A stretch of DNA of 64,000 bases from Candidatus Uhrbacteria bacterium (GTDB lineage: Bacteria; Patescibacteriota; Patescibacteriia; UBA9934; GWF2-40-263). Under the pieces are notes generated by a model. It made no database searches and had not been told where the DNA came from. It was given only the letters and a program-made list of their open reading frames with translations. Positions 1 through 35,053 of this stretch are shown here, one piece after another; the first letter of the stretch is position 1, and each line of letters opens with the position of its first letter. The DNA lies in NCBI GenBank assembly GCA_023246355.1, contig JAHFIQ010000001.1:145887-209886 (forward strand), in the 5' to 3' direction. A program made the translations under genes and the position numbers.

Positions 1-1875
1 CGTTCCAGTCCAGGCGCCGGTTGTTTCTGTGCGCCACAGGGCTCCGCTCATGGTTCCGGTGTGTGTGAGATAAAAACCATTTCCTGAAGTCAGACCATCA
101 ACCGTGTAGTCGATGCCGTTGGCTGTGGTCACGGAATCAAAGAAGATATCCATCGTATCGTTGGTGGTCTCTGACGAGAAGAAGTTGAACATGTCGAGCG
201 ATCCGGCAGACTGGGTGCCGAAGTTCATCACATCAGCGCCTGTGCCTGTTCCCATGTTGATGGTTCGAGCCACAGAAGTGCTTCCGATCGTGATCGTACG
301 ACTGGCTGTTTGTGTGTCGAGTGAAACATCATTTTGGGCACTAGTAACCGCAACTGATCCACCTGAACCACCAGCGGTAACGGAGATAGCTCCGTCCGTT
401 GTGTCCATGGCAATGGTTCCGGCGCCGGCCACGTTTACATCAAGTCCAGCCGATCCAGGACCAGCCGAGTTGTTGGTGTTGATCTGAACATACGCGGCAT
501 CCAAACCAATGGCACCGGTTGTATTGTTGGTTGCATCGTAGGCATCAAGCTCAATACCTGAGCCAGCAGCGCCATCTGCATCAAGATAAATAGCGACGCC
601 TGTTGGATCTGAGGCAAGAGTTGTCGTGTCCAGGGAGCGCAAAACCACCGTGGACGAAGTGCCGCCAGCACTCGTCGAAAGGGTGAGTCCGCCTACGGAT
701 GTTGAAAAGTTTGAAGCAGCTCCGCCGTCGATGGTGACACCGCCAGTACCACCGTTGATGTCGACGAGAAGCGCATTGATTTCAGATTCTGTGGAAGCAG
801 CATTACCCATGGTGATGGTCTTGGCTGCTGCACCTGTTCCCAAGTTGACCGCGCCGGTTGAACCAGAATCCACTGTGACCGCGCCGGTTGTTCCAGAGGT
901 AATGTTCAAAGCAGAAGCAGCTGCGGAGGCAACCGTTCCAGCTCCAACAAAGGTCAAATCGTTAATATCTAAGTTTGTGCCCTCGACGAGGATTGCACCA
1001 GCATTCCCACCGTCGTCAATCGTGATGGCACCAGTGCCTGGTGTGATATCAAACTCTGGACCATCAACGCCAAATCCACCGGTACCGGTGTTTATTTGAA
1101 CCGCTGTTGCTCCTGTGGTGTTACCAACCGTAACCGTGTGGGCAATCGCGTTGGTACCAATGTTCAAGGCGCCAGTTCCAGCGTTCAATACGACCGATGT
1201 GGCACCGGTTGAGTTACCGACCGTGACGGTCTTTGCAACCGCGCCAGCACCAATGTTGATGGCTGTGGCAGCCGAGTTGTCAAGTGTCAGAGTGGCTGTG
1301 TCGGTGATACCTTCAACGAAGTTCCAGGAATCGCCATCGTAGAAGCGAATCTTGTCGTTCGTGGTGTCGTAGAACAAACGACCATCAAACGTATCGTCTG
1401 TTGGGGCGCTTGAGACAGCCTCAATGGCTTGAGTGAAGATAGAGTAAGGCGTCTTGGTTACCTCCACGCGAGGGGAAAGGGTTTCAGCTGAACCAACCGC
1501 ATCAGAAGAGTTCACCTTTAATTCAAGAAAAAGATTGTCTGAAAAATCAGAGAGGCTTGCTCCAAGCGGGATCTGCAAGGAGAAGAAGCCGTTGGTGACT
1601 GTAATGGCCGATGTTGGTGTGGCCAAGAAGTTTGTACCTTGGATATTGCTTGAGGCAGTTGTACCACCTGTGAGTGCGCTCTCCAAGTCAAACCAGAAAT
1701 AGTACGTTCCTGTGAGGGCCGTACCGGATGAGTTAAAAAGGCGTCCGTTGTAGCCGATCGATGTCGGCACCTGCGCTTGGGCAGCGGACGGGACTGCAAG
1801 AAGGGCAAAAGCCAGTGTGTAGAACACCATGGCCACTGCCACAAACGTGTGCAGAATGAGTTTGGCGGTTCGCAT
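1..1875 (-). CDS. Large secreted cell-surface repeat protein (N-terminal ~625 aa; gene continues past the window start)
   Basis: An ATG at 1875 (minus strand) opens a frame I translated by hand with no stop down to position 1. The track omits it only because it is incomplete. The N-terminus MRTAKLILHTFVAVAMVFYTLAFALLAVPSAAQA is a signal peptide. The body is Gly/Thr/Ala/Asn-rich with reiterated units (TVTVGNSTGATSVVLNAGTGALNIGTNAIAHTVTVGNTTGATAVQINTGTGG), which reads as beta-helix or adhesin-like. It also carries the motif GRLFYDTTNDKIRFYDGDSW. The plus-strand track ORFs here are out-of-frame or antisense artefacts. Confidence 0.6.
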   Translation of the reverse strand, partial: MRTAKLILHTFVAVAMVFYTLAFALLAVPSAAQAQVPTSIGYNGRLFNSSGTALTGTYYFWFDLESALTGGTTASSNIQGTNFLATPTSAITVTNGFFSLQIPLGASLSDFSDNLFLELKVNSSDAVGSAETLSPRVEVTKTPYSIFTQAIEAVSSAPTDDTFDGRLFYDTTNDKIRFYDGDSWNFVEGITDTATLTLDNSAATAINIGAGAVAKTVTVGNSTGATSVVLNAGTGALNIGTNAIAHTVTVGNTTGATAVQINTGTGGFGVDGPEFDITPGTGAITIDDGGNAGAILVEGTNLDINDLTFVGAGTVASAAASALNITSGTTGAVTVDSGSTGAVNLGTGAAAKTITMGNAASTESEINALLVDINGGTGGVTIDGGAASNFSTSVGGLTLSTSAGGTSSTVVLRSLDTTTLASDPTGVAIYLDADGAAGSGIELDAYDATNNTTGAIGLDAAYVQINTNNSAGPGSAGLDVNVAGAGTIAMDTTDGAISVTAGGSGGSVAVTSAQNDVSLDTQTASRTITIGSTSVARTINMGTGTGADVMNFGTQSAGSLDMFNFFSSETTNDTMDIFFDSVTTANGIDYTVDGLTSGNGFYLTHTGTMSGALWRTETTGAWTGT

Positions 1876-2028
1876 ACGATTGTGATGCGTAGTCTCTTAG
1901 GAGACTTGAAATTATTTAAAAGGATTGGACGGCTCAGTGATTCTGGTAAAGAAACGATGAAACCCAAGGCGCATGCCTTGTTCATTCCTTTACCAAATCA
2001 CTTAGCTCATGCCTCGATCCATGAGAGA

Positions 2029-3261
2029 TTAATTAAGTTTTTTCTTTTTCCTTGCGGAAATTATACCAACAATGACGATTGCTCCCAAGATCAGAGTTAT
2101 CAACAGCTTCTTTGGTGTCGACAAACTGTTCACGGCTGCGCCAGCGCGTGCGATGGCTGTGAGCTCCTGATTCTCCTCAAATCCATCAGGACGACTCAGA
2201 TCGGTTCCTTCTGGGTACACACGGATTGACGTGCTTCCATAAGAAGCGTTCCCTGCTCGATCAAGCGCTGCGACTCGGAAAAAGTAGGTCCCAACAGCCA
2301 AGTCTGAGATTTCCAGCGGACTCTCTTGCACCTGATACTCACTATCGTTGATGGCCACTTGGTACTGAAGTACGCCTGAGGTCTCATCAATGGTCGCAAA
2401 GGTAAACCAGGCAGATTCGCCTTCTAAAATCTTGTTTGTTTGGGCGACAAGTTCGATCGCATGTGGCGCCGTGGTGTCGATGTTGACTCGACGATGGGCG
2501 ACAGCTGTCTGCTTTCCGTTTGCTTGAACGCCCTTCAAGTGGAGGTAGTGGACCCCGTCTGCCACACCGGTAAATGAAAGCTGAGATGTGGACCCGTCCA
2601 CGTATGTGCTTGGTTCCGTATCTGAGTTCTCATCAAACGTGTAGTAATAGGCTGTGATGGGACTGTCTCCTTGCAGCGCCGTCCAGGTGAAAGCGACATC
2701 ACTCACAGTGAACCAGTCGACTTCGTTTGGATGACTCTCGCTCTCCACAACAAGCAGCGCTGTTCCAGCTTCTGCTGTGCTGGAGGCTCCTACCGTTACT
2801 TGCGAGCTCCCCAAATTCCCCGTGTCTATTTTCTCCTCTCCGTCCTCGATCGCTCGAGAGTCCGCAGAGATTTCTACGTCACCACTTCCCTCTTGCAGCG
2901 CAAGAAAGGTGATGGTCGCAAATGGTCCTTGTGCGGTCACTGGACCTTCCAGCGTAAAGGCTCCCCATGAAATTTTTCCGGTTTCGTTGTTGTACTCATT
3001 GCCTGGCGCCACACGATCGAAGGCTCCCACAAGAGAGACATTTCGAACTTGCAGAAGCGTTGGATCAAACGTGACCACGGCACGAGCTGTATCGAGCAAT
3101 GCCCCGCCTGGATTCACGCTCACGATCACATCGAATTGTTCGCCGCGTTCCACGGAGTATTCGCTCTGATCCAGACTCATCGATGCGGCTCCTTGTGCCT
3201 GAGAAATCCCAGGCAAGAGAAGCATCATCCCGACTACGACAACCGAAAGGAATTGTTTCAT
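2029..3261 (-). CDS. Cohesin-domain cell-surface protein with Ig/FN3-like region and a C-terminal TM anchor
   Basis: The 425-aa track ORF is trimmed to the start MKQFLSVVVVGMMLLLPGISQAQG (signal peptide), which is preceded by AGGAGG. The N-terminal domain (FDVIVSVNPGG...VVTFDPTLLQV...GKISWGAF...ATITFLALQEGSGDVEI) has the cohesin pattern. The C-terminus reads LLITLILGAIVIVGIISARKKKK. Confidence 0.6.
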   Translation of the reverse strand: MKQFLSVVVVGMMLLLPGISQAQGAASMSLDQSEYSVERGEQFDVIVSVNPGGALLDTARAVVTFDPTLLQVRNVSLVGAFDRVAPGNEYNNETGKISWGAFTLEGPVTAQGPFATITFLALQEGSGDVEISADSRAIEDGEEKIDTGNLGSSQVTVGASSTAEAGTALLVVESESHPNEVDWFTVSDVAFTWTALQGDSPITAYYYTFDENSDTEPSTYVDGSTSQLSFTGVADGVHYLHLKGVQANGKQTAVAHRRVNIDTTAPHAIELVAQTNKILEGESAWFTFATIDETSGVLQYQVAINDSEYQVQESPLEISDLAVGTYFFRVAALDRAGNASYGSTSIRVYPEGTDLSRPDGFEENQELTAIARAGAAVNSLSTPKKLLITLILGAIVIVGIISARKKKKLN

Positions 3262-3362
3262 ACGTACTTCTTGTCCTCCTGTGAATGTTGGCTTGGTGAG
3301 GGACATGTCGGATCAAAAACGTGTTTTGAGGCGGCATGTCCCTCACCAGAGCCAACGTACTG

Positions 3363-4244
3363 TTAAACACTTGTTCCCCATCGTGCGACCATCATCGAGA
3401 AGTCATAGTCGTCCACGATTTCATCTTCATTGAAGTCCCCGGCACGATTGTTATCGCCCCAGATTTTCACCAGCTTGCTCAAATCGTAATCGTTGACTGT
3501 GTCGTTTCCTGTGACGTCGCCGATCAGTCTTCGATAGAGTTCGTAGACGGTTTCGTCTGAGTCCTTAGAACCATTACTGGCGACAATCGAGAAGCTATTG
3601 AGTCCGTATGAAAGCGATACCATCGAGGACCAAGAATCATCGTCGACCAGTTCTACATCCTCTGAGGAATCGTTAATCGTGATCTCGTCAGTGTCTGTAT
3701 CCATGGTTCCGTACAAAAGGAAGGATGTTTTGTAGCTGTATTCAAGTGAGGCAATCTCGTCGGAAACTTCTGGTTCATCTGGCGCGGATCCGCCTCCACC
3801 ACCGCCACCGCCTCCACCACCGCCGCCTCCACCAGAGGCTGTTGAACAGCTTGACGTGACATAGGCACAGGCTGAGCTACAGGAAAGCGTTCCGGCATCA
3901 AACCCTTGGCTGGCACAGGTGGCGCTGTTCAAGTCTGCGCCATCACATGTTTCAGAGGAATCGCGGAAACCATCACCACAGTAGAACTGGAACGCGCCTC
4001 CGCCCTGCTCTTGATAGGTTGTGCTTGAGACGCTTCCTGTGTACGGCTCAATAGCTCCCTGCGCTCGATAACTTGAGGAGGTAAGCATCCCGGAGGCATT
4101 GGCTCCAGCGTTGGCCGAGGGAGACAGGTAGCCTTCCTCTGGATTGATCTGGTAGGTCGTTGAGGAAACCGTCGCTCCCGCACTCAGAGGGAATGCGACC
4201 AGACTGAGCGCCACCAGCAGTACAGGTAATTTTTTATATGTCAT
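3363..4244 (-). CDS. Secreted Cys-rich protein with a poly-Gly linker and a C-terminal dockerin-like duplicated Ca-binding repeat
   Basis: Signal peptide MTYKKLPVLLVALSLVAFPLSAGA. The central domain is Cys-rich (CGDGFRDSSETCDG...CSSACAYVTSSC). There is a run of fifteen Gly. The C-terminus reads GDVTGNDTVNDYDLSKLVKIW...GDFNEDEIVDDYDFSMMVARW, which matches the dockerin D-x-N-x-D-x-x-V-N-x-x-D pair. Confidence 0.6.
   Translation of the reverse strand: MTYKKLPVLLVALSLVAFPLSAGATVSSTTYQINPEEGYLSPSANAGANASGMLTSSSYRAQGAIEPYTGSVSSTTYQEQGGGAFQFYCGDGFRDSSETCDGADLNSATCASQGFDAGTLSCSSACAYVTSSCSTASGGGGGGGGGGGGGGGSAPDEPEVSDEIASLEYSYKTSFLLYGTMDTDTDEITINDSSEDVELVDDDSWSSMVSLSYGLNSFSIVASNGSKDSDETVYELYRRLIGDVTGNDTVNDYDLSKLVKIWGDNNRAGDFNEDEIVDDYDFSMMVARWGTSV
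3787..3834 (-). repeat. (GGN)n simple-sequence tract encoding poly-Gly
   Basis: The tract ccgcctccaccaccgccaccgcctccaccaccgccgcctccacc is in-frame. It encodes GGGGGGGGGGGGGGG in the dockerin-like protein. Confidence 0.8.
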
Positions 4245-4262
4245 ATGCGGAGTCGCTCGCCA

Positions 4263-6011
4263 TTAAAACGCTCCTGAGTAAGCAATCGCTGCAACGATAT
4301 TCCAATCTTGATCTGAACTTGGAAGGGCGCCGAACGCGGAAACATACGTGGTGATCGCGGCGGACTCGGCCTCCAAGTCGCGCTCATCATCACTTGGGGT
4401 GTAGCCGTTCACCATGTAATCGATGGCGACCCAATCAGCATCCTCAGATGGAAGACGACCGGTGATGGTTCCAAACCAACCAATGGCTTGCTGTTCAAGT
4501 GTCAGCGCTGTTTCTTCTTCTGCGACCACCTCTTCTACCTCTGCCACCTCATCCACCTCTTCCTCATCTCCTGACTCTAGGAAGTCTGTGTAGGCAAGCG
4601 TGTGTACGACATTCCATTCCATGTCCGTCGATGGCATCTTGGCGTACTTGGCACCGAAGATGACGAGTGCTGCTTGCTCGGCCGCCAGATCTTGTTCTTC
4701 TTCTTCACAGCCGCCGTAGGCAATGCAATGCAGAGCTGCCCAGTCGTCTTCTGAGGAAGGCATGCGAGCATAGAACGCTCCGAAGTAGACGAGCGCTTGC
4801 TGCTCAAGACTTGCAGATGTTTCTTCCTCGACTACCTCTTCTACCTCGTCCACCTCGGCCACCTCTTCCTCCTCTCCTGAGTCAAGGAAGTCCGTGTAGG
4901 CAAGCGTGTGGATGACATTCCATTCCATGTCTGTGGATGGCATCTTGCCGTACTTCGCGCCGAAGGTTACGAGTGCTGCTTGCTCGGCCGCCAGATCTTG
5001 TTCTTCTTCTTCACAGCCGCCGTAGGCAATGCAATGCAGAGCTGCCCAGTCGTCTTCTGAGGAAGGCATGCGAGCATAGAACGCTCCGAAGTAGACGAGG
5101 GCCTGTGCTTCAAGAGAGGCGGAAGATTCGGTGGTTGTTTCTTCTTCGGTCGTCTCCTCTTCTGTTGTGGTTTCTCCCTCTTCAAGAGGTTCAAGGCCTA
5201 GCAATTCCTGTCCAGCCGTTGTGTAAGCCAGTGCGTGAACCGCCTGCCAGTCCATAGAAGAAGATGGGTTGGCACCGTACTTGCTATTGAACTTGGCAAG
5301 CGCGGCAACTTCGTACGTGAGATTGCGATTGTCCGAGTCATAGCAACCGTCATCAGCAATACAGTTATTGGTTTCCCAATCGTCATCACTGGATGGAAGG
5401 CGTCCAAACAAGGCGCCGAAGTAAACCAGGGCAGCTGCTTGATCACTCTCACTTGCACCGTTGCTGTTTGAGCTACTTGTATCTTCTTCGTCAGTTGTTG
5501 CTGGAGCTTCTGATTCAACATCAGCGCCCGTGATCGTGATCCTGGACGATCCAAGTTCACCTGTATCGATGGTTTCTTCACCATCGGAAATCAAACGTGA
5601 TGAATCCTCAACCGCGATCGTTGCTGTTCCGGAGGACAGCGCATGAAAGGTCACGGTCGCAAGGGTGCCAGAGCTCGTCACCGGAGTGCCGAACTTGTAC
5701 GCGCCGTAGCTGAGTGTGCCTGCATCGTTGTCGATGTCATTGGAAGGTGAAAGATTTGGAAACAAGCTTCCAAGATCAAACGACAGCACCTCGACCATAT
5801 CTGGATCGAAGGAAAGATCGACACGAACCGTGTCGAGCGACTCGTCGTTGGCGTCCACGAGTACGCTTAAACTAAAAGAGTCCCCTGTCTCAACGGACGT
5901 GTTGGTAGGAGACAACGACAACGTGGCCGTGGTACCGGCATGCGCCGCTGGAATGCCAACGTTCGCGATTCCCATCGCGAGTCCGAGGAAGAGGACGGCA
6001 ATCTTCTTCAT
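4263..6011 (-). CDS. Cohesin-domain surface protein followed by seven ~45-aa acidic repeats
   Basis: Signal peptide MKKIAVLFLGLAMGIANVGIPAAHA. The cohesin-like N-terminal domain reads SFSLSVLVDANDESLDTVRVDLSFDPDMVEVLSF...GTLSYGAY...TVTFHALSSGTATIAV. It is followed by seven repeats of the unit A-[AL]-V-x-F-G-A-x-Y-x-x-M-P-S-x-[DE]-x-[DE]-W-x-x-[IVA]-H-x-[LI]-A-Y, separated by Glu/Thr-rich linkers. Confidence 0.65.
   Translation of the reverse strand: MKKIAVLFLGLAMGIANVGIPAAHAGTTATLSLSPTNTSVETGDSFSLSVLVDANDESLDTVRVDLSFDPDMVEVLSFDLGSLFPNLSPSNDIDNDAGTLSYGAYKFGTPVTSSGTLATVTFHALSSGTATIAVEDSSRLISDGEETIDTGELGSSRITITGADVESEAPATTDEEDTSSSNSNGASESDQAAALVYFGALFGRLPSSDDDWETNNCIADDGCYDSDNRNLTYEVAALAKFNSKYGANPSSSMDWQAVHALAYTTAGQELLGLEPLEEGETTTEEETTEEETTTESSASLEAQALVYFGAFYARMPSSEDDWAALHCIAYGGCEEEEQDLAAEQAALVTFGAKYGKMPSTDMEWNVIHTLAYTDFLDSGEEEEVAEVDEVEEVVEEETSASLEQQALVYFGAFYARMPSSEDDWAALHCIAYGGCEEEEQDLAAEQAALVIFGAKYAKMPSTDMEWNVVHTLAYTDFLESGDEEEVDEVAEVEEVVAEEETALTLEQQAIGWFGTITGRLPSEDADWVAIDYMVNGYTPSDDERDLEAESAAITTYVSAFGALPSSDQDWNIVAAIAYSGAF
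4560..5170. repeat. Near-perfect 306-bp (102-aa) tandem direct duplication inside the cohesin-repeat gene
   Basis: Sequence 4681-4796 is identical to 4987-5102 (gccgccagatcttgttcttcttcttcacagccgccgtaggcaatgcaatgcagagctgcccagtcgtcttctgaggaaggcatgcgagcatagaacgctccgaagtagacgag). The flanks are about 90% identical. Track ORFs 4667..4915 and 4937..5257 translate to the same peptide, which confirms the period. Confidence 0.85.
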
Positions 6012-6318
6012 AAGAAAATTTTTTAGGGCGGTTAAATGTAAAAGGATTTTGATGGCGCAAGTGACATCAAAAAAAGTTCATCAAAATTATACATGCAACG
6101 CGCAAGACCGACAAAGAAAATCTGTGTATAACCTGCGAAGTTCATCAAGAAATAATTCCGGAGAGCACAACCGTTATCGGTCACTTTCATCCCAACAACA
6201 AACTTCTCGACAAGGAAGCATTCAACGGCAAAATGGGATTTCTCTATTGCGCTGCTGCTGGTAATGACCTAAAAAGTCCACGCCAGTATAGACAAAAAAG
6301 GTTTTCCACAGCCGATTT

Positions 6319-7629
6319 TTACTTTTCTCCTCTGAACAAAAGCTGAACGGTTTTGAGAAGAATCAGGAAATCAAGAACCAACGATCGGTTTTTTATATAG
6401 TACAAATCGTATTCGAATTTTTTTTGAGAGTCCGTGACAGAACGAGCATAGCGAAATTTAATTTGCGCCCAACCGGTGAATCCTGGTTTTACAAAATGAC
6501 GAACACGATAATGGGGAATCTCTCGCTCAAGCGTTTCCACAAACATCGGTCGCTCTGGTCTTGGTCCGACCAAACTCAACTCCCCTTTCAACACATTCAA
6601 CATCTGCGGCAGCTCATCCAAGTGACTCTTACGCAACAGGTTGCCCACCCGTGTCACACGATCATCGTTCTTTGTCGCCCACTGCGCTCCACTCGCTTCC
6701 GCATCTGCTCTCATGGTACGAAACTTTTTAATCAAAAACGGCTGACGATTTTTCCCAACACGTTCCTGTGTGTAAAAAATAGCTCCGCCTTCCATCTTGA
6801 TCAAAAGGGCGATGAACATCCACAGCGGCAAGGTAAGAAGCAACAGACACGCCGCGACCGACACATCAAAGACACGCTTCAAACGATGCGAGAGACCTTG
6901 ATTGCGCTCCTGAACATGACGAATGAACCACGCGTGATCGATCGTGGAGAGTGGAATTCTCCGTGCGAATAATTCATAGGCTTGGGCGAGATCCAAGAAG
7001 GTCACACCCGTTCCAAGACACGCATAGAGTGATTGAAGGTGGTCACCTTGAGACAAAAATGCGTTAGGAACAATAACCACATCGAGATGATGTCGTTGGA
7101 TCTGACTCACAAGATCCTCTCCTGATGATGTGAGAGACACAGACTCATATCCATGATGCTTCAATGACTGGATAATTTCTGCTAACTCCCCCTCTTGATC
7201 TTGGAGATCCAACAGACCAATCCGCCAAGGAACAAGAGAGGAGATCTTCAGCGAGAATACCAAGCGCCACAGGTACGCGAACAAGCCAAACAGCAGGACG
7301 TGGATAAGGAGGTTCGTCTTAGGACTCAAATCTGTGAGTGTCGTTGCATAGAAAAACAAAACCCCTGTCCCAAACAGCATCACCACTGCAACGCCAAAAC
7401 GCGCCATAAACGACGTTGAGGTCGGCGGCAGAGAGAGGTCGTAGAGATCCATCACATAAAAAACCGCGAGCCAAACCAGATACAGAAAAGAGAACGGGAC
7501 GGCGTGAGCCAAAAAACGCTCTGTATCAACCTGCCCCCAGAACCCAATAAAAAGAGCCAACCACAATGTCCCGTAGAGTAATGCTACGTCTCCTGTTAGG
7601 AGAGCCATTTTCCGAAAAATGAAGCCCAT
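6319..7629 (-). CDS. Undecaprenyl-phosphate sugar phosphotransferase (bacterial sugar transferase, WbaP/WcaJ-like)
   Basis: N-terminal TM segments. The C-terminal catalytic domain reads KRVFDVSVAACLLLLTLPLWMFIALLIKMEGGAIFYTQERVGKNRQPFLIKKFRTM...LDELPQMLNVLKGELSLVGPRPERP...KPGFTGWAQI. Confidence 0.8.
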   Translation of the reverse strand: MGFIFRKMALLTGDVALLYGTLWLALFIGFWGQVDTERFLAHAVPFSFLYLVWLAVFYVMDLYDLSLPPTSTSFMARFGVAVVMLFGTGVLFFYATTLTDLSPKTNLLIHVLLFGLFAYLWRLVFSLKISSLVPWRIGLLDLQDQEGELAEIIQSLKHHGYESVSLTSSGEDLVSQIQRHHLDVVIVPNAFLSQGDHLQSLYACLGTGVTFLDLAQAYELFARRIPLSTIDHAWFIRHVQERNQGLSHRLKRVFDVSVAACLLLLTLPLWMFIALLIKMEGGAIFYTQERVGKNRQPFLIKKFRTMRADAEASGAQWATKNDDRVTRVGNLLRKSHLDELPQMLNVLKGELSLVGPRPERPMFVETLEREIPHYRVRHFVKPGFTGWAQIKFRYARSVTDSQKKFEYDLYYIKNRSLVLDFLILLKTVQLLFRGEK

Positions 7630-7635
7630 ACTACA

Positions 7636-9669
7636 ATGCCGTTATCATACACTATGGCTATACAAACAGAATCCTCTCTGAACCGATTCCTCCTGACAGC
7701 AACAAGAGTCGGAATGTTCTCCACCTTGCTCACTCCCCTGCTGTACTGGAGCAAGCTCATGTTCCTTCAAAACTCAACCAAAACATACTTCATCTACATC
7801 ATGAGTGAAATTACGCTTGTGCTCTTTCTCTGGCTCATCGCAAGAGCGCCAGAGTGGCGGCCGCGTATCACGCTGACCACGAAACTTTTCTTTCTCTACA
7901 TCCTGATCCTTGTCCTTGCATCCTTGCTGGGCGTTGATCCATCTTATTCTTTCTGGGGGAGTTTGGATCGGATGGGAGGAATCCTGACATGGCTGCATCT
8001 CACTGCTGTGTTTGTGGTTCTCACAAGCTTGATGCGCACACAAGAAGATTGGGTAAAATTTTTTTCCTTCTCGACTGCGGTTGCCGTCATGATCGCTTTT
8101 ATCCATCTCTTCTCCTTGGGTGGAACGGCGCTCATACCTGAAGCCCGAGGCGGAGCGACCCTGGGCAACTCTTCTTTCTTGGCTGTGTACTTGCTCTTCC
8201 ACACCTTTTTTTCGCTCTTTCTCGCCTCACAACAAAAAAAGAAAGAACGGCTCTACACCTGGCTGAGCGTCTGTGCCTTCTTTGCTCTGACTCTTTCCAG
8301 CGTAAGCGCCGTGGCCGTTCATTTCAGTTTGATCGGTGGAATGGTCCTGCTTTCCATTCTCCTGCTTATCGTCCATGGACGCTCCAAAACAAAAAAACAG
8401 CTTGGGATCGTTCTGCTCGTCCTCTTGTCGATCGTCTTTCTGACCACAACGATTCTGGCCTTCTTGCCTGAGAGCTCTGTGCATCAAAAATTTATCGACC
8501 TTTCCTCTGGGTCGCGATTTGCCCTTTGGGATAGTGCTTGGCAGGGCATCAAAGAAAAACCCTTGTTTGGCTGGGGCTTGGAAAACTTCGGCGTCGTAGC
8601 CCTGACGCACTACAACCCCTGCTTTGGATCTCAGGCGTGTGGGTTTGAAATGTGGTTTGACCATGCACACAATAAACTTCTGGACGTTTGGATTGAGTCC
8701 GGCATTCTGGGACTCCTGCTCTATCTTGGAATTTGGATATCCAGCATTCGCGAGCTGTGGCTGGCGCGACAAAAAAAGAACATCACAGGAACCACATTCG
8801 CCATTTTCAGCGCTTTGCTCGCCGCCTACTTTGTCCAAAACCTGACCGTCTTGGATACGATCACGAGTCTCTTGTTGTGGATCATGGTTCTCGCATTTTC
8901 AAATTCTCAAGAAGAGCCAGCCGTAAAAAAATCACGACCCTTGCCCCTGGCCATCCCGACGATCGCAACGATGTTCCTTCCCTTCGCCTTCTTTTTTTTC
9001 GTGATACAGCCCCTGCGCGGCAACCTGGGATTTGAACATGTGCTGAACGCCACAGATCTAGACACTCGGCTTGAAGCCTACGAACGCGCCACCACCCTCT
9101 CCCCTCTTGGCATTGACATGCGTCGGATTTTTCTCGGCGACCAAACGTCCAGCACCTACTGGAAAATCCCGGTCGAGACATTGAGGAGCATCGAGCCTCA
9201 AGCCCGCCTAGAGCTCGGACTCGCTCAAGCTGGTCTCATGGACAGTCTCGGTCACAAGAATCAAGAATTGCGAGCCCACATCGCTCTGGGAATCATGTAT
9301 CAAACTGAGGGACACTTTTTTGATCCTGCGGCCTTTGAGAAAGCCGAAGAAATTTTACTCAAAGCGATTGAACTCTATCCGCTGATCCCTCAACCTAAAT
9401 GGACCTTGGCGGGTGTGTACCTAGACGAAGGAAAATTGGATGAAGCGCTTGCCATGACTCAGTCTGTCTTAGATGCTTCACCTCTTTCACCCCAGGCTTA
9501 CAACTATCAACTCATTGTCCTTAAATGGATGGACGATACTGATGCCTTTGAAAAACTTGCCGCTCAGGCACTTCAGCTCATCCCTAATCTTCAATCAGAC
9601 ATCGACCAACTCACCGCGGTCGACCTGCAAACACGCTCCCAAGAAGTTCTGACCTCATTCCACCGTTAG
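7636..9669 (+). CDS. O-antigen ligase (Wzy_C) family polytopic membrane protein with C-terminal TPR repeats
   Basis: Multiple TM helices. The core reads HAHNKLLDVWIESGILGLLLYLGIWISS. The C-terminal ~250 aa are TPR-like (LGIMYQTEGHFFDPAAFEKAEEILLKAIELYP). Confidence 0.7.
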   Translation: MPLSYTMAIQTESSLNRFLLTATRVGMFSTLLTPLLYWSKLMFLQNSTKTYFIYIMSEITLVLFLWLIARAPEWRPRITLTTKLFFLYILILVLASLLGVDPSYSFWGSLDRMGGILTWLHLTAVFVVLTSLMRTQEDWVKFFSFSTAVAVMIAFIHLFSLGGTALIPEARGGATLGNSSFLAVYLLFHTFFSLFLASQQKKKERLYTWLSVCAFFALTLSSVSAVAVHFSLIGGMVLLSILLLIVHGRSKTKKQLGIVLLVLLSIVFLTTTILAFLPESSVHQKFIDLSSGSRFALWDSAWQGIKEKPLFGWGLENFGVVALTHYNPCFGSQACGFEMWFDHAHNKLLDVWIESGILGLLLYLGIWISSIRELWLARQKKNITGTTFAIFSALLAAYFVQNLTVLDTITSLLLWIMVLAFSNSQEEPAVKKSRPLPLAIPTIATMFLPFAFFFFVIQPLRGNLGFEHVLNATDLDTRLEAYERATTLSPLGIDMRRIFLGDQTSSTYWKIPVETLRSIEPQARLELGLAQAGLMDSLGHKNQELRAHIALGIMYQTEGHFFDPAAFEKAEEILLKAIELYPLIPQPKWTLAGVYLDEGKLDEALAMTQSVLDASPLSPQAYNYQLIVLKWMDDTDAFEKLAAQALQLIPNLQSDIDQLTAVDLQTRSQEVLTSFHR

Positions 9670-11642
9670 TAGAGTTCAAAAATAAGCTGGGCTCGCTTCT
9701 GGTTCACGTCCGCGTTAGAGATGAGACGTATTTGATCTTCCAAGCTTGAGGAAAGCGCATAGGCTTCATTGGCATAGCGCAAAAACAACTCCTGATCACC
9801 CAAAAACTTTACAGCGATCAAACGTTGAATCTGTGATTCAAGAACTGAGGGATCGAGATCAACAGCGGCCTGTGTAAGAGCTACCGCCTCTTCAATTCGA
9901 CTTTGATCAAGAAACACAGCGGCGAGCGCCCAGAGGGGGTGAGGATTGCGTGGATTCAGGTCAATCGCTTTTTTCAGCACTGTTTCTGCATCCTGAAATT
10001 TTGCCGAATTGAAAAATCTCGCCTCTGTGTGATAGAGCAGGCCTAAATGCAACAACGCAATAAGATCATTGGGTGCTCTGGAGGTCGTATCAACGAGGGC
10101 GGTTTCTGAGAGACTGAGCTCTGCGAGGAACTCCGTATTATCCTGGGAAGGATCCGAGAGCATGTCTTTCCAGACCTTTCCCGCTGTTTGACGAGCCAAG
10201 TACCACCGACGCATATCGATGCCAAGTAGAGACCCGTTCACAGCTCGCTCATACAAACTCAATCGTTCCTGGGAGGTTTGAGCCAAGAGAACCTGATCAA
10301 CCGCAAGGTTCCCAAGCACAGGTTGAATCACGGAAAAAAATAGCCCGAAAGGAAGGACGACCGTCGCGACCATTGGAAACCAAACAGGGACAGGCTTGAT
10401 TGGTGAGTGAGCCGACTCCCCTAACCCAGCATATGAAAGCAAGAGGATCCAGAAAAGAAGTGTCACGCCATCATCAAAGCCGGTAAGATTCTGAACAAGA
10501 GAGCCGGCCAAGGCACAAATCACGATCAGAGGAATCACGCCTGAGAAACGACTACGCCACAAGGTCCACAACGTGAGGGCGAAAATACTGAGATAAGAAA
10601 AAAGTCCCATCAATCCTGATGCAACAAGCACGTCAAGAATGATGTTATGAGCACGGTCATACCAAACCTCAATCCCGCAAGGAAGTGACCCAAGACAGGA
10701 ATCATAATGCTGAAAAAACGCTGTCTGAAAATTCTCGAGTCCCCATCCCAACCAGGGGTGTTCTTGCAATGCTTGCCACGCAATATTCCACACAACAAAT
10801 CGCCCACCGTTTGACCTGGAAACAAACGTTTCACGAATCCAACTCGTAGGGTCAGCAAGAGACAGCAGAGCAACAAGAAAACTCAATCCAAGAATGCCCA
10901 GCATACACCAACCGATCTGTTGTATCCCTCTGGTCTTTCCCTTGACGATCAAAAACAAGGAGAGGAACAACACGAGACTCCCCAAAAACGCACCAATGGA
11001 GGCCTGTGCCGTTGAAAGGAAAAGAGCGAGGATGAGGACAGCCGTAGCGATGGCGCTCATCACCCGCAATCGGCCAACGGATTGAGTAGCCAACACGAGA
11101 CTAAAACAAATTTGAAACAGCAGATAGGCACCAAAAAACGTTGAGTTTCCAATCGTTGAACCTGAGTGAGTGGATGAGAGGAGATCAATACCTGCGAAAG
11201 AAAACAGATGCACAGTAGAAACAAGAACCCCAACGATCGTTGAAAGAAGAAAGAATGGTTTCCAATCTTGTGCGGTGCGAAAAACGGAGGAGACGACAAA
11301 AAAAATCAGAACAAGATGGATCCAAAGCAACACGCCAGCCATGCGATCAAGACTCCCCCAAAAACTCAGGACCGGATCACTGCCAAAAAATGCAGAGAGA
11401 GAAAGGACGAGGAGGAATACAACGAGGGCTTTCCCTACACGGTTCGCTCGATACCCGATGGGAGGATGCAAAAAAAGAGACCACACAAAAAAAACGAAAA
11501 TACATTCGCTCACTCCCATGATGAAAAATGTCTTCGTTGACTCAAAATAATACTGCAACGGAGTCCAAAAAAAGAGCGGTGTAAACGCAAGGGCATAAAT
11601 CCCTAAACGAACGAGACGAAGTGAAACAGGCTCTTCTTTCAT
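9666..11642 (-). CDS. O-antigen ligase family + TPR membrane protein (paralog of 7636..9669)
   Basis: RAHNIILDVLVASGLMGLFSYLSIF aligns with the paralog. The C-terminus is TPR-like. The track ORF starts at 11807 but would overlap the divergent gene at 11698. I trimmed the start to M at 11642 (MKEEPVSLRLVRLGIYALAFTPLFFW), which aligns with the paralog N-terminus. M at 11681 is an alternative. The two paralogs overlap tail-to-tail by 4 bp. Confidence 0.65.
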   Translation of the reverse strand: MKEEPVSLRLVRLGIYALAFTPLFFWTPLQYYFESTKTFFIMGVSECIFVFFVWSLFLHPPIGYRANRVGKALVVFLLVLSLSAFFGSDPVLSFWGSLDRMAGVLLWIHLVLIFFVVSSVFRTAQDWKPFFLLSTIVGVLVSTVHLFSFAGIDLLSSTHSGSTIGNSTFFGAYLLFQICFSLVLATQSVGRLRVMSAIATAVLILALFLSTAQASIGAFLGSLVLFLSLFLIVKGKTRGIQQIGWCMLGILGLSFLVALLSLADPTSWIRETFVSRSNGGRFVVWNIAWQALQEHPWLGWGLENFQTAFFQHYDSCLGSLPCGIEVWYDRAHNIILDVLVASGLMGLFSYLSIFALTLWTLWRSRFSGVIPLIVICALAGSLVQNLTGFDDGVTLLFWILLLSYAGLGESAHSPIKPVPVWFPMVATVVLPFGLFFSVIQPVLGNLAVDQVLLAQTSQERLSLYERAVNGSLLGIDMRRWYLARQTAGKVWKDMLSDPSQDNTEFLAELSLSETALVDTTSRAPNDLIALLHLGLLYHTEARFFNSAKFQDAETVLKKAIDLNPRNPHPLWALAAVFLDQSRIEEAVALTQAAVDLDPSVLESQIQRLIAVKFLGDQELFLRYANEAYALSSSLEDQIRLISNADVNQKRAQLIFELY

Positions 11643-11697
11643 AGGATGTATTTGCAAATTGTGTGCCTTTTTTGAAAACATGTAAAATACGGCCGCT

Positions 11698-12660
11698 ATG
11701 CAAAAGAACGTCATTCTCGTCACCGGCGGAGCTGGATTTATTGGTTGCCATGTCGCCAAACGACTTATCGAGCTAGGACACGACGTTGTCATTGTCGACA
11801 ACTTCAATCCTTACTACGATCCATCCTTGAAAGAGGCAAGGATCGCCACACTGCTCAAAGACCTGCCTTTCACTCTGTACAGAAATGACATTCAGGACGA
11901 GCACGCGATGCGGAAAATTTTTGACAGGCACAAACCCAATCTCCTCTGTCACCAAGCAGCCCAAGCTGGTGTGCGCTATGCCACTCAAGATCCTTTTGCC
12001 TACGGACAGTCAAATCTGATGGGCACGCTCACTCTCTTGGAACTGGCTCGAGAGTTTCAGGTACAAGGCATTGTGATGGCTTCAAGCTCGTCAGTCTATG
12101 GCGACGCCGCACACTATCCAGTCAAAGAAACGGACGTGACCGACCAGCCAATCTCTCTCTACGCGGCTACGAAGCGATCCTGCGAGCTCATCGCCTACTC
12201 CTATCATCACCTCTACAACCTTCCTATCACTTGTCTACGCTATTTCACTGTGTATGGTCCTTGGGGACGTCCAGATATGGCGATCTTCTCTTTTACGAAA
12301 GCGGCCATCGAAGGAAAACCGATCAATGTCTACGGTCAAGGCGAAATGGCTCGGGACTTCACCTACATCGATGATATCGTGGATGGTGTCATCAAGGCTC
12401 TTCAAGTGAATCTTCCATGGGCTGTGTTAAACCTCGGTCGTGGAAACGCAGAACCACTCATGCACATGATTCAACTTGTGGAACAAGCGACGGGCGAACA
12501 TCTTGAAAAACGATTCCTCGATATGCAACCAGGAGACGTGAAACAAACGTTTGCGGATGCGAGCCTTGCGAAAGAACGCCTCTCCTGGGAGCCTCACACA
12601 CGCCTGGATGAGGGAGTCGCCGCGTTCGTTGCGTGGTACAAAAAGTACTATGGAGCATAA
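11698..12660 (+). CDS. NAD-dependent nucleotide-sugar epimerase (SDR; UDP-glucuronate/UDP-glucose 4-epimerase-like)
   Basis: VLVTGGAGFIGCHVAKRL is a Rossmann motif. YAATKRSCE is the catalytic Y-x-x-x-K. DNFNPYYDPSLKEAR is typical of the UDP-GlcA 4-epimerase group. Confidence 0.8.
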   Translation: MQKNVILVTGGAGFIGCHVAKRLIELGHDVVIVDNFNPYYDPSLKEARIATLLKDLPFTLYRNDIQDEHAMRKIFDRHKPNLLCHQAAQAGVRYATQDPFAYGQSNLMGTLTLLELAREFQVQGIVMASSSSVYGDAAHYPVKETDVTDQPISLYAATKRSCELIAYSYHHLYNLPITCLRYFTVYGPWGRPDMAIFSFTKAAIEGKPINVYGQGEMARDFTYIDDIVDGVIKALQVNLPWAVLNLGRGNAEPLMHMIQLVEQATGEHLEKRFLDMQPGDVKQTFADASLAKERLSWEPHTRLDEGVAAFVAWYKKYYGA

Positions 12661-15188: not shown

Positions 15189-16255
15189 TGATCAACCGAA
15201 TCCTCTCCCAAATCAAAAGCACCATCGGCAACCTCACCGCCTCGATACGCGGGTTCGATTTGGCATACGTTGTTGAAGGTCACGACTGGTCGATCAAGCA
15301 TGATGGTCAATCGATCACCAAAGCTCTCAACCAACAACAGCTGTTACACGCCCGTACAACATTCACCTCTGTTGGCTTACGTAACCAAATGGTGCATTTC
15401 GGTTCGGTCAATACCTTTTTTACAAAAAAAGGCTGGCATGAACCTCACGCATCAAATCGTGTCATCCTTACATGGTTTCACGTGATAGACGGCGACCCGC
15501 GCATCAACCTTCTCGTTCCCATTCAACACCAGCTCCACGCCATCCATACGTCATGCGAACAAACCAAACGAACACTCACAGATGCCGGAATTGACGAAAA
15601 CAAAATCATCGTCATTCCCCTGGGGGTCGACGTTTCTCTTTTCACTCCCGGGACACCCGAGCAAAAACGAAACGCACGTGAACGATTAGGAATAGCTGCT
15701 GATCGGCTTGTGATCGGATCGTTTCAAAAAGACGGTATCGGATGGGGCGAAGGAGTGGAACCAAAACTGATCAAGGGACCTGACAGCCTTGTAGAAACTC
15801 TCGTCCGCCTCAAGGCGAACAATCCACTTGTTCTTCTGACGGGCCCGGCTCGGGGATACGTCAAACGCGAACTGACCAAACACAGAATTGACTACATCCA
15901 TACCTACCTTCAAGATACAAAAAACCTGCCAGCCATGTACCATGCACTCGACCTCTATCTCATCACTTCACGATTGGAAGGAGGACCGAAATCCCTCTTA
16001 GAAGCATGGGCAAGCGGTGTGCCAGTCGTATCAACACGTGTGGGGATGGTTCCAGACATCGCGATTCATGAACAAACAGTGCTCTTCACTGACGCCGAAG
16101 ATGTTGACGGTCTGGCACAGCTGTCACACAGACTCATGACCGATCAGACTCTCTCTGATCGTCTCGCCCGTCAGGCCCTCATCGTCGTACAGGACCATTC
16201 CTGGGACAAGATCGCTCGCCGGTATGTTGATGAGCTCTACCGTCCCCTGCTATGA
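15185..16255 (+). CDS. GT4 family glycosyltransferase
   Basis: The start is trimmed to MMINRIL, giving an ATGA overlap. The C-terminus reads RLEGGPKSLLEAWASGVPVVSTRVGMVPDI. Confidence 0.7.
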   Translation: MMINRILSQIKSTIGNLTASIRGFDLAYVVEGHDWSIKHDGQSITKALNQQQLLHARTTFTSVGLRNQMVHFGSVNTFFTKKGWHEPHASNRVILTWFHVIDGDPRINLLVPIQHQLHAIHTSCEQTKRTLTDAGIDENKIIVIPLGVDVSLFTPGTPEQKRNARERLGIAADRLVIGSFQKDGIGWGEGVEPKLIKGPDSLVETLVRLKANNPLVLLTGPARGYVKRELTKHRIDYIHTYLQDTKNLPAMYHALDLYLITSRLEGGPKSLLEAWASGVPVVSTRVGMVPDIAIHEQTVLFTDAEDVDGLAQLSHRLMTDQTLSDRLARQALIVVQDHSWDKIARRYVDELYRPLL

Positions 16256-34976: not shown

Positions 34977-35053
34977 TGGTGGGGGTGGATGGACTCGAAC
35001 CATCGACCGTCGAGGTATAAGCTCGATGCTCTAACCAACTGAGCTACACCCCC
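34977..35053 (-). tRNA. tRNA-Ile (anticodon UAU)
   Basis: Minus-strand sequence GGGGGTGTAGCTCAGTTGGTTAGAGCATCGAGCTTATACCTCGACGGTCGATGGTTCGAGTCCATCCACCCCCACCA. It has a 7-bp acceptor stem, a GCTC/GAGC D stem, an anticodon stem TCGAG/CTCGA with loop CTTATAC, a T arm GATGG-TTCGAGT-CCATC, and an encoded CCA. Confidence 0.8.

Follow-up and report, generated by a model that had tools for sequence, protein, structure and literature searches.

A probable non-cellulosomal cohesin-dockerin joint in a conserved surface-protein cassette of Candidatus Uhrbacteria

Candidate Phyla Radiation bacteria (CPR, Patescibacteria) are mostly uncultured and presumably spend their lives attached to other cells, while their surface machinery is almost unknown. 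Cohesin-dockerin docking, on the other hand, is Ca2+-dependent and very tight in the systems known. The 64,000 nucleotides analyzed here, referred to as the window, belong to contig JAHFIQ010000001.1 of a Candidatus Uhrbacteria bacterium, a tiny, uncultured CPR organism from groundwater. For the beginning of this stretch, an earlier note made from the sequence alone had proposed a set of two cohesin-domain surface proteins flanking a dockerin-like secreted protein. Positions 1-6011 indeed hold four consecutive minus-strand genes, named A to D in the order of transcription, and the reading favored in the following is that the first three provide a dedicated cohesin-dockerin joint outside any cellulosome:

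4263-6011, minus strand: gene A, secreted cohesin protein of 582 residues (open reading frame (ORF); signal peptide, one cohesin, four helical modules, acidic linkers)
3363-4244, minus strand: gene B, secreted dockerin protein of 293 residues (ORF, family alignment and AlphaFold2 (AF2) model)
2029-3261, minus strand: gene C, membrane-anchored cohesin protein of 410 residues counted from ATG 3261 (the ORF reaches 3306)
1-1875, minus strand: gene D, 5' part (625 codons) of a giant secreted protein rich in G, T, A and S (translation; cut by the window edge)

Gene B starts 18 nt past the stop codon of A. For gene C, translation most likely begins at ATG 3261, giving the N-terminus MKQFLS, since an AGGAGG motif lies 13 nt upstream and the same start is used in public gene calls (410 residues on public contigs); D starts at ATG 1875. 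A signal-peptide-like hydrophobic segment is found at the start of each of the four proteins, and a second hydrophobic segment occurs in C only. The B protein is present with identical sequence and the same neighbors on several metagenome contigs in ENA.

The cohesin domains of the two outer genes are recognized directly by Pfam Cohesin (PF00963, gathering cut-off 24.1 bits), which scores 38.2 bits for A and 33.5 bits for C and thereby bears out the cohesin-like signature that the earlier note had seen in both flanking genes:

5577-5912, minus strand: cohesin domain of A, residues 34-145 (Pfam PF00963)
2827-3153, minus strand: cohesin domain of C (Pfam PF00963)

Both domains are paralogous beyond chance, as they share 37% identity over 170 residues (E 3e-30); motifs common to both cohesins are DT.R, PGN..dN..G and S.lI..GeEk. 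When a profile built from 23 domains of the A and C types was compared with solved structures, the top of the list consisted exclusively of cellulosomal cohesins, namely 3l8q_A (1.4e-4), 5g5d_A, 4uyp_A, 1g1k_A and 2vn5_A, at modest E values between 1e-4 and 3e-3. Each of the two proteins carries a single cohesin, and the same is true for all orthologues. Of protein A, 88 homologues were found, nearly all of them from Uhrbacteria; most have a precomputed PF00963 assignment and several are named 'cohesin domain-containing protein' at NCBI.

Both cohesin proteins differ in how they end. The sole hydrophobic segment of A comprises residues 2-24 and resembles a signal peptide, so that this protein is without a membrane anchor. 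C, in contrast, terminates in LLITLILGAIVIVGIISA, followed by RKKKK and then LN, in agreement with the earlier note, which had one flanking gene end in a transmembrane segment plus KKKK. Between cohesin and helix, an immunoglobulin (Ig)-like stalk is predicted:

2038-2106, minus strand: C-terminal transmembrane helix LLITLILGAIVIVGIISA of C with RKKKK stop-transfer tail (hydropathy and sequence)
2152-2766, minus strand: Ig-like stalk of C, two beta-sandwich modules (sub-threshold matches to Big_13, K319L-like PKD, fn3 and an OmpL47-type barrel)

Although these stalk matches stay below threshold in C itself, the C orthologue of locus L001 exceeds the cut-offs for both fn3 (27.8 bits) and Y_Y_Y (27.7 bits). 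The membrane helix with its basic tail closes nearly every complete C-type orthologue and is found in no A-type protein; a crude 19-residue hydropathy filter missed L038 and L043 4047-4871, the C-termini of which do show a hydrophobic stretch followed by RRKK. A sortase (LPXTG) or exosortase sorting signal was considered as well and was ruled out, as no conserved motif precedes the helix, and a Pfam-type scan of the proteins gave no profile match for S-layer homology (SLH) repeats. By its sequence features, C would hence be a tail-anchored display protein that carries its cohesin at the N-terminal tip of roughly 200 residues of Ig-like modules.

The dockerin of B required the use of family information. 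It forms the C-terminus of the protein and directly follows an Ig-like module:

3366-3524, minus strand: dockerin of B, residues 241-293 (repeat 1 at 3456-3521, repeat 2 at 3375-3440)
3525-3788, minus strand: Ig/Fn3-like beta-sandwich of B, residues 153-240, X-module-like (AF2, predicted local distance difference test (pLDDT) above 90, seven strands)

Repeat 1 reads GDVTGNDTVNDYDLSKLVKIWG (residues 242-263) and repeat 2 reads GDFNEDEIVDDYDFSMMVARWG (residues 269-290), which matches the duplicated Ca-binding, dockerin-like segment previously described for the end of the middle gene. The proposed check of this segment with Pfam Dockerin_1 (PF00404, gathering cut-off 22.9 bits) turned out only partly in its favor: B alone reaches no more than 16.5 bits (E 0.0098), while 24 of 28 aligned B relatives are matched at E of 0.01 or below (best 3.8e-7) and distant relatives in locus L043 score 27.7 and 31.7 bits. 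Precomputed PF00404 assignments exist for about 11 of 74 B homologues. The best matches of a B-family profile to the PDB are all dockerins (4fl4_A at 8.8e-4, 2jnk_A, 1daq_A and 2mte_A). For this search the family profile is required, as the single B sequence retrieves only engineered Gly-Ser linkers, artefacts caused by its poly-glycine run. Likewise, a profile of the last 55 residues of B, applied to a set of 5.8 billion proteins of which only short ones became candidates, retrieved proteins that mostly carry PF00404.

Formal alignment shows the Asp/Asn pattern expected for Ca coordination in both repeats, with hardly any variation. The ligands are D243, T245, N247, N251 and D254 in repeat 1 and D270, N272, D274, D278 and D281 in repeat 2, corresponding to a pattern D1, N/T3, D/N5, D/N9, D12 in which D1 and D12 are invariant across the family. 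Both 12-residue Ca loops are nearly invariant and internally symmetric, and both repeats continue with an invariant D-Y-D-[LF]-S motif and a Trp at position 20. In the AF2 model, where residues 153-293 reach a pLDDT above 90, the Ig-like sandwich runs straight into the dockerin, whose helices 252-260 and 279-287 are predicted with pLDDT of about 95. The dockerin part superimposes on the Bacteroides cellulosolvens dockerin 2y3n_B with a template modelling (TM) score of 0.80 and a root-mean-square deviation (rmsd) of 1.4 Å over 54 columns; the corresponding Foldseek E value is only 0.026 because the domain is small. Foldseek additionally relates the Ig-like module to the CbhA Fn3-like modules 3pdd and 3pe9 as well as to glucodextranase domain B, in line with a weak Pfam match to Glucodextran_B. 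Taken on their own, the domain assignments (cohesin in A and C, dockerin in B) are regarded as highly likely. Of the two outcomes that, according to the earlier note, would have refuted it, a lack of significant profile matches and a missing Asp/Asn pattern, neither was observed; the set is thereby confirmed as a non-random feature, and its interpretation in the note is supported.

The remaining parts of B precede the Ig-like module:

3981-4172, minus strand: disordered region of B, residues 25-88, with three S-[ST]-[ST]-Y motifs (family alignment; pLDDT 30-40)
3846-3980, minus strand: six-cysteine domain of B, residues 89-133, CGDG...C...C (six invariant Cys in the alignment)
3789-3833, minus strand: run of 15 glycines in B, residues 138-152, flexible linker (pLDDT below 50)

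Residues 25-88 are conserved in the family although they are predicted to be disordered. The six-cysteine domain matches thousands of multi-copy Cys-rich repeat proteins (profile positions 78-127), a repeat family which is itself weakly related to DUF4215 and TIGR02232, and a search of representative sequences with the B family is dominated by such proteins, next to about 25 B-type clusters. The glycine run is encoded by 15 consecutive glycine codons, and its length class is conserved across the B family. Profile scans gave no catalytic domain in B. Its 74 full-length homologues (40-81% identity) come from Uhrbacteria and Parcubacteria, and B-type proteins are annotated as 'hypothetical' in every named record but one.

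Downstream of its cohesin, A consists of helical modules separated by acidic linkers:

4266-5438, minus strand: four helical modules of A of about 75 residues each (residues 192-264, 302-374, 404-476 and 507-582)
5220-5438, 4890-5108, 4584-4802 and 4266-4493, minus strand: window coordinates of the individual modules, with acidic linkers between them

The modules share the sequence ALVYFGAFYARMPSS..DW..LHCIAYGGC... and appear in the AF2 model of residues 294-480 as two four-helix domains (pLDDT above 90) joined by a disordered linker; neither Foldseek against the PDB nor Pfam gave a match for them. A copy with 79% identity is also found at the C-terminal end of P0167, an S8 family peptidase from Uhrbacteria that has no dockerin. 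The module is therefore portable, and it looks like a targeting domain that has not been described before. The number of modules varies, so does the length of A (266-637 residues between species), and in some species bacterial TSP3 repeats follow C-terminal to the helical modules.

How these genes are arranged in other genomes was examined by a dockerin-based search, which yielded 38 loci from 38 species-level assemblies, the ORFs being classified by module profiles. Named homologues belong to Candidatus Uhrbacteria of the Patescibacteria/Parcubacteria group. The order A-B-C-D(-E), where E denotes a further small gene, recurs in about 60 loci and is kept wherever the contig reaches, with the cohesin gene directly following the dockerin gene in 36 of the 38 species genomes. 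The reverse search, using a cohesin motif over metagenome contigs, led to 24 loci, all of which display the same order where the sequence allows. The flanks, by contrast, vary from housekeeping genes (L001) and FtsEX (a JGI contig) to glycosyltransferase, Bac_transf and O-antigen-ligase-like genes (the window and L003), and because they differ between loci, the cassette behaves as a unit. A pattern scan of the 38 assemblies gave, within its sensitivity, one dockerin pattern per genome, and such a single copy fits a dedicated pair. Moreover, the flanking sequence of the approximately 60 loci, at most 10 kb per side, yielded no further dockerin or cohesin, and A, C (cohesin) and B (dockerin) are the only proteins with such profile matches in the whole window. 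Among the cassette-bearing assemblies L007, L013-L015, L020-L022, L031, L032 and L042, several are titled 'uncultured Gammaproteobacteria bacterium' and one 'Candidatus Methylomirabilis sp.'; these titles probably stem from mislabelled or mis-binned records of metagenome-assembled genomes.

Outside the core family, the pairing is also seen in L041 and L042, where a C-like gene comes after a B-like one. L043 (Parcubacteria GW2011_GWB1_42_6) contains it twice in tandem (3407-4871 and 7247-11019), with Pfam scores above cut-off: the gene of a dockerin-ended protein, of 211 residues in one pair and 974 in the other, precedes that of a small cohesin protein with membrane anchor. This gene order, dockerin first and anchored cohesin second, thus seems to be a motif of wider occurrence in Parcubacteria.

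Conservation was also compared module by module, as mean pairwise identity over 23 complete cassettes. Within B, conservation is highest in the dockerin (0.68), ahead of the N-terminal half (0.51) and the Ig-like module (0.41); for the cohesin proteins, values of 0.57 (A cohesin), 0.44 (C cohesin) and 0.45 (C stalk) were obtained.

The giant protein had been placed upstream of the set and called repetitive in the earlier note, and neither point held up. As D lies at lower coordinates on the minus strand (1-1875), it is located downstream of C in the sense of transcription, and instead of internal repeats, none of which is detectable by BLAST, it displays a composition rich in G, T, A and S. 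Complete D orthologues comprise 1968-2812 residues and always follow C (e.g., L001 12098-18682). Their C-terminal region is conserved and matches an H-type-lectin profile below threshold (22.5 versus 24 bits), and an acidic tail of Pro, Val and Glu forms the end; a PDB sequence search with the C-terminal 594 residues returned nothing significant. Public assemblies usually break within the D gene. Directly after D, beyond the left edge of the window, E follows, a small membrane protein of 151-161 residues (L001 18796-19281; also L012, L013, L018, L023 and L028), which begins with MAI[EQ]SKM.RGPIG and contains a membrane helix followed by ...FLDNGQVYFG...LGNEAHGPED...; no family match was obtained for it. 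Several loci continue after E with a membrane protein resembling O-antigen ligases.

From these features, a dedicated non-cellulosomal cohesin-dockerin joint at the core of a conserved Uhrbacteria surface cassette is considered the probable function of A, B and C, with binding inferred from domain identity and gene order. A, B, C and D would all be exported via their Sec signal peptides. C would then be retained in the cytoplasmic membrane by its C-terminal helix and RKKKK tail, holding its cohesin at the tip of the Ig-like stalk, while the C-terminal Ig-like module and Ca2+-binding dockerin of soluble B would act as an 'X-Doc-like' pair (X module plus dockerin) that plugs into a cohesin in a presumably Ca2+-dependent manner. 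The partner may be the cohesin of C, whereby B would become tethered to the membrane, and/or that of A. A dual binding mode is known from cellulosomal dockerins, and the two near-perfectly symmetric repeats of B could likewise allow either binding orientation. A, as a secreted and unanchored paralogue, might cross-link, cap or compete through its cohesin, and its helical modules might bind a common envelope or target ligand, the same as for the S8 protease. The free 'cargo' end of B, consisting of the S-S-T-x-Y motifs and the six-cysteine domain on a poly-glycine tether, could engage either D or an external ligand. Given that A-B-C are always accompanied by D and E, it is proposed that the joint organizes a surface fibre or adhesin layer which includes the giant protein; this link to D, and any structural or adhesive role, is much less certain than the joint itself.

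The most serious alternative is that the cohesin- and dockerin-like modules are genuine homologues which do not bind one another, their genes being neighbors as parts of one D-centered surface structure. The dockerin would then be a Ca2+-stabilized terminal module or a binder of some other ligand, and the cohesins would serve as spacers or as carbohydrate- or protein-binding domains. Several observations weigh against a dedicated joint, and those on L029 and L039, on the Dockerin_1 score of B and on partnerless dockerins elsewhere also point this way. In L029 (7487-10452), D directly follows B and no cohesin gene lies nearby; the B-like gene of L039 (9632-20362) has an E-like gene and a giant gene of the opposite strand as neighbors, and 20 kb of sequence there are free of cohesins. 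The partner can hence be encoded elsewhere, and the ties of B to D and E may be closer than those to C. Additionally, the cohesin of C, the presumed anchor, is less conserved than that of A, which bears on the question of the primary partner, and B by itself stays below the Dockerin_1 cut-off. According to the survey of Peer et al. (2009), as summarized in PMC9012536, dockerin-like modules that lack a known cohesin partner are frequently encountered outside cellulosomes. Finally, D, E, the helical modules of A and the N-terminal half of B are without PDB or Pfam matches that could serve as precedent. Against an absence of binding stand the dockerin-then-cohesin order, which is kept in 36 of 38 loci from genomes and, where it could be tested, in every metagenome locus of the reverse search, the recurrence of the pairing twice in tandem in the distant Parcubacteria genome of L043, and the conservation pattern, in which the dockerin exceeds the rest of B and the putative recognition residues D-Y-D-[LF]-S are invariant, as would be expected for a constrained interface. 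In view of this, the non-binding explanation is held to be rather unlikely.

Cohesin and dockerin are, of course, the defining modules of cellulosomes, and the S8 peptidase with its A-type helical module hints at co-localized enzymes. A and C could therefore be imagined as scaffoldins of a miniature cellulosome-like assembly for dockerin-bearing, polysaccharide- or cell-wall-degrading enzymes encoded elsewhere, with B as one of many ligands. Yet A and C contribute only one cohesin each and no multi-cohesin scaffoldin is found, the pattern scan of 38 assemblies gave a single dockerin per genome, and neither the window nor the flanks of the other loci, up to 10 kb per side, showed a second dockerin or a third cohesin. 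Moreover, B lacks a catalytic domain, the S8 peptidase possesses the helical module and no dockerin, and the cassette's neighbors in the window, which comprise glycosyltransferases and O-antigen-ligase-like proteins, include neither glycoside hydrolases nor carbohydrate-binding modules (CBMs). An enzyme scaffold is thus very improbable, and the self-contained, non-cellulolytic setting suggested by the earlier note fits these observations. Highly improbable, too, is a phage- or tail-fibre-derived cassette in a prophage or defective element, with D as a fibre with lectin-like tip and A-C as assembly or attachment proteins, since the fibre-like appearance of the giant, G/T/A/S-rich D with its weak H-type-lectin-like C-terminal domain and a faint PHROG tail-tube match of E (E 0.008) are set against the absence of any significant PHROG match for A, B, C, D or E, against varying housekeeping and glycosylation genes in the flanks with no integrase, capsid or terminase, and against one copy per genome across a whole candidate phylum with a divergence that tracks the hosts.

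Beyond the cassette, the window contains further features of note:

6086-6114, minus strand: weakly supported promoter-like site TTGTCG-17-TATAAT, some 75 nt upstream of A
6319-7629: Bac_transf priming glycosyltransferase beside two large Wzy_C proteins
7636-9669, plus strand, and 9666-11807, minus strand: two large membrane proteins of Wzy_C type (O-antigen-ligase-like) in convergent orientation; the one on the minus strand has C-terminal TPR repeats
16252-19098, plus strand: fusion protein of 948 residues, group-1 glycosyltransferase domain (residues about 196-275) plus full ABC exporter (membrane domain and ATPase)
34977-35053, minus strand: tRNA-Ile with anticodon TAT

A scan for promoters and terminators returned site counts no higher than in shuffled controls. 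Wzy_C and Bac_transf genes also flank the cassette in L003 and not in L001, and the glycosyltransferase-ABC exporter fusion sits within a long run of glycosylation genes. AUA is read in most bacteria by a lysidine-modified CAT tRNA, which makes a UAU tRNA-Ile uncommon.

If a dedicated joint is accepted, a further step may be considered, in which A-B-C-D-E would represent a lineage-wide appendage composed of a lectin-tipped fibre D, the adaptor B, the anchored cohesin C and A as cross-linking or capping protein, used by the episymbiont to hold on to host cells or biofilm matrix. This extension is speculative and considered unlikely; were it true, the cohesin-dockerin joint would be the attachment device of an ultra-small episymbiotic bacterium. 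Irrespective of this, a cassette that is single-copy, phylum-wide and based on a well-understood docking chemistry offers a testable handle on CPR surface biology, and its small, expressible domains could serve as baits or labels for contacts of D and of the adaptor B. At the same time, CPR and a single-cohesin variant anchored by a membrane helix would be added to what is documented of cohesin-dockerin pairs outside cellulosomes.

In full-text searches of the literature, no account of a cohesin-dockerin system from Uhrbacteria or CPR turned up. Among known systems, two are closest in mechanism. The first is the cellulosomal type II pair of X-dockerin and anchoring-scaffoldin cohesin (Clostridium thermocellum CipA X-Doc with SdbA; 5m0y_B, 2y3n_B). 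As in this system, the B dockerin with its two EF-hand-like Ca loops directly follows an Ig-like module, and its presumed partner would be a single cohesin on a cell-bound anchoring protein (C). The cohesin profile of A and C also matches cohesins of anchoring and adaptor scaffoldins, at modest E values and with no assignment to type I, II or III. In contrast to the type II system, the Uhrbacteria cassette is devoid of enzymes, CBMs and a multi-cohesin scaffoldin, the anchor of C is a C-terminal membrane helix with basic tail rather than SLH repeats or a sortase signal, and the host is a CPR bacterium. Differences are further seen in the dockerin itself, which is compact (about 53 residues) with a six-residue linker between the repeats and no middle helix, and which carries D-Y instead of S-T or similar residues at recognition positions 10-11. 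The Ig-like module is without sequence similarity to known X modules, and its orientation relative to the dockerin is unlike that in 5m0y_B (rmsd 13 Å for the Ig-dockerin model).

The second is the dockerin-cohesin pair of the Clostridium perfringens toxin complex (NagH dockerin, PDB 2jnk/2ozn), which likewise serves outside the cellulosome in joining secreted proteins. Among solved structures, its dockerin 2jnk_A ranks second for the B-family profile, and the starts of the helices resemble each other (...IDEYEIS versus ...VDDYDFS in B), albeit at a profile similarity of only E~1e-3. In C. perfringens, however, both partners are modules of large glycoside-hydrolase toxins, while B has no enzyme domain and C is membrane-anchored.

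Closest in context are the non-cellulosomal modules of Archaeoglobus fulgidus, ANME (anaerobic methanotrophic) archaea and diverse bacteria, where, according to PMC9012536, which summarizes the survey of Peer et al. (2009) and binding studies on Archaeoglobus, single cohesins occur in organisms that do not degrade cellulose and a role in the assembly of surface or extracellular proteins has been proposed. These reports are mostly domain censuses covering variable architectures, whereas the Uhrbacteria pair resides in a strictly conserved five-gene cassette together with a giant protein. The locus is hence a known kind of cohesin-dockerin system, with no new mechanism, in a new lineage and in a conserved gene context that had not been described before.

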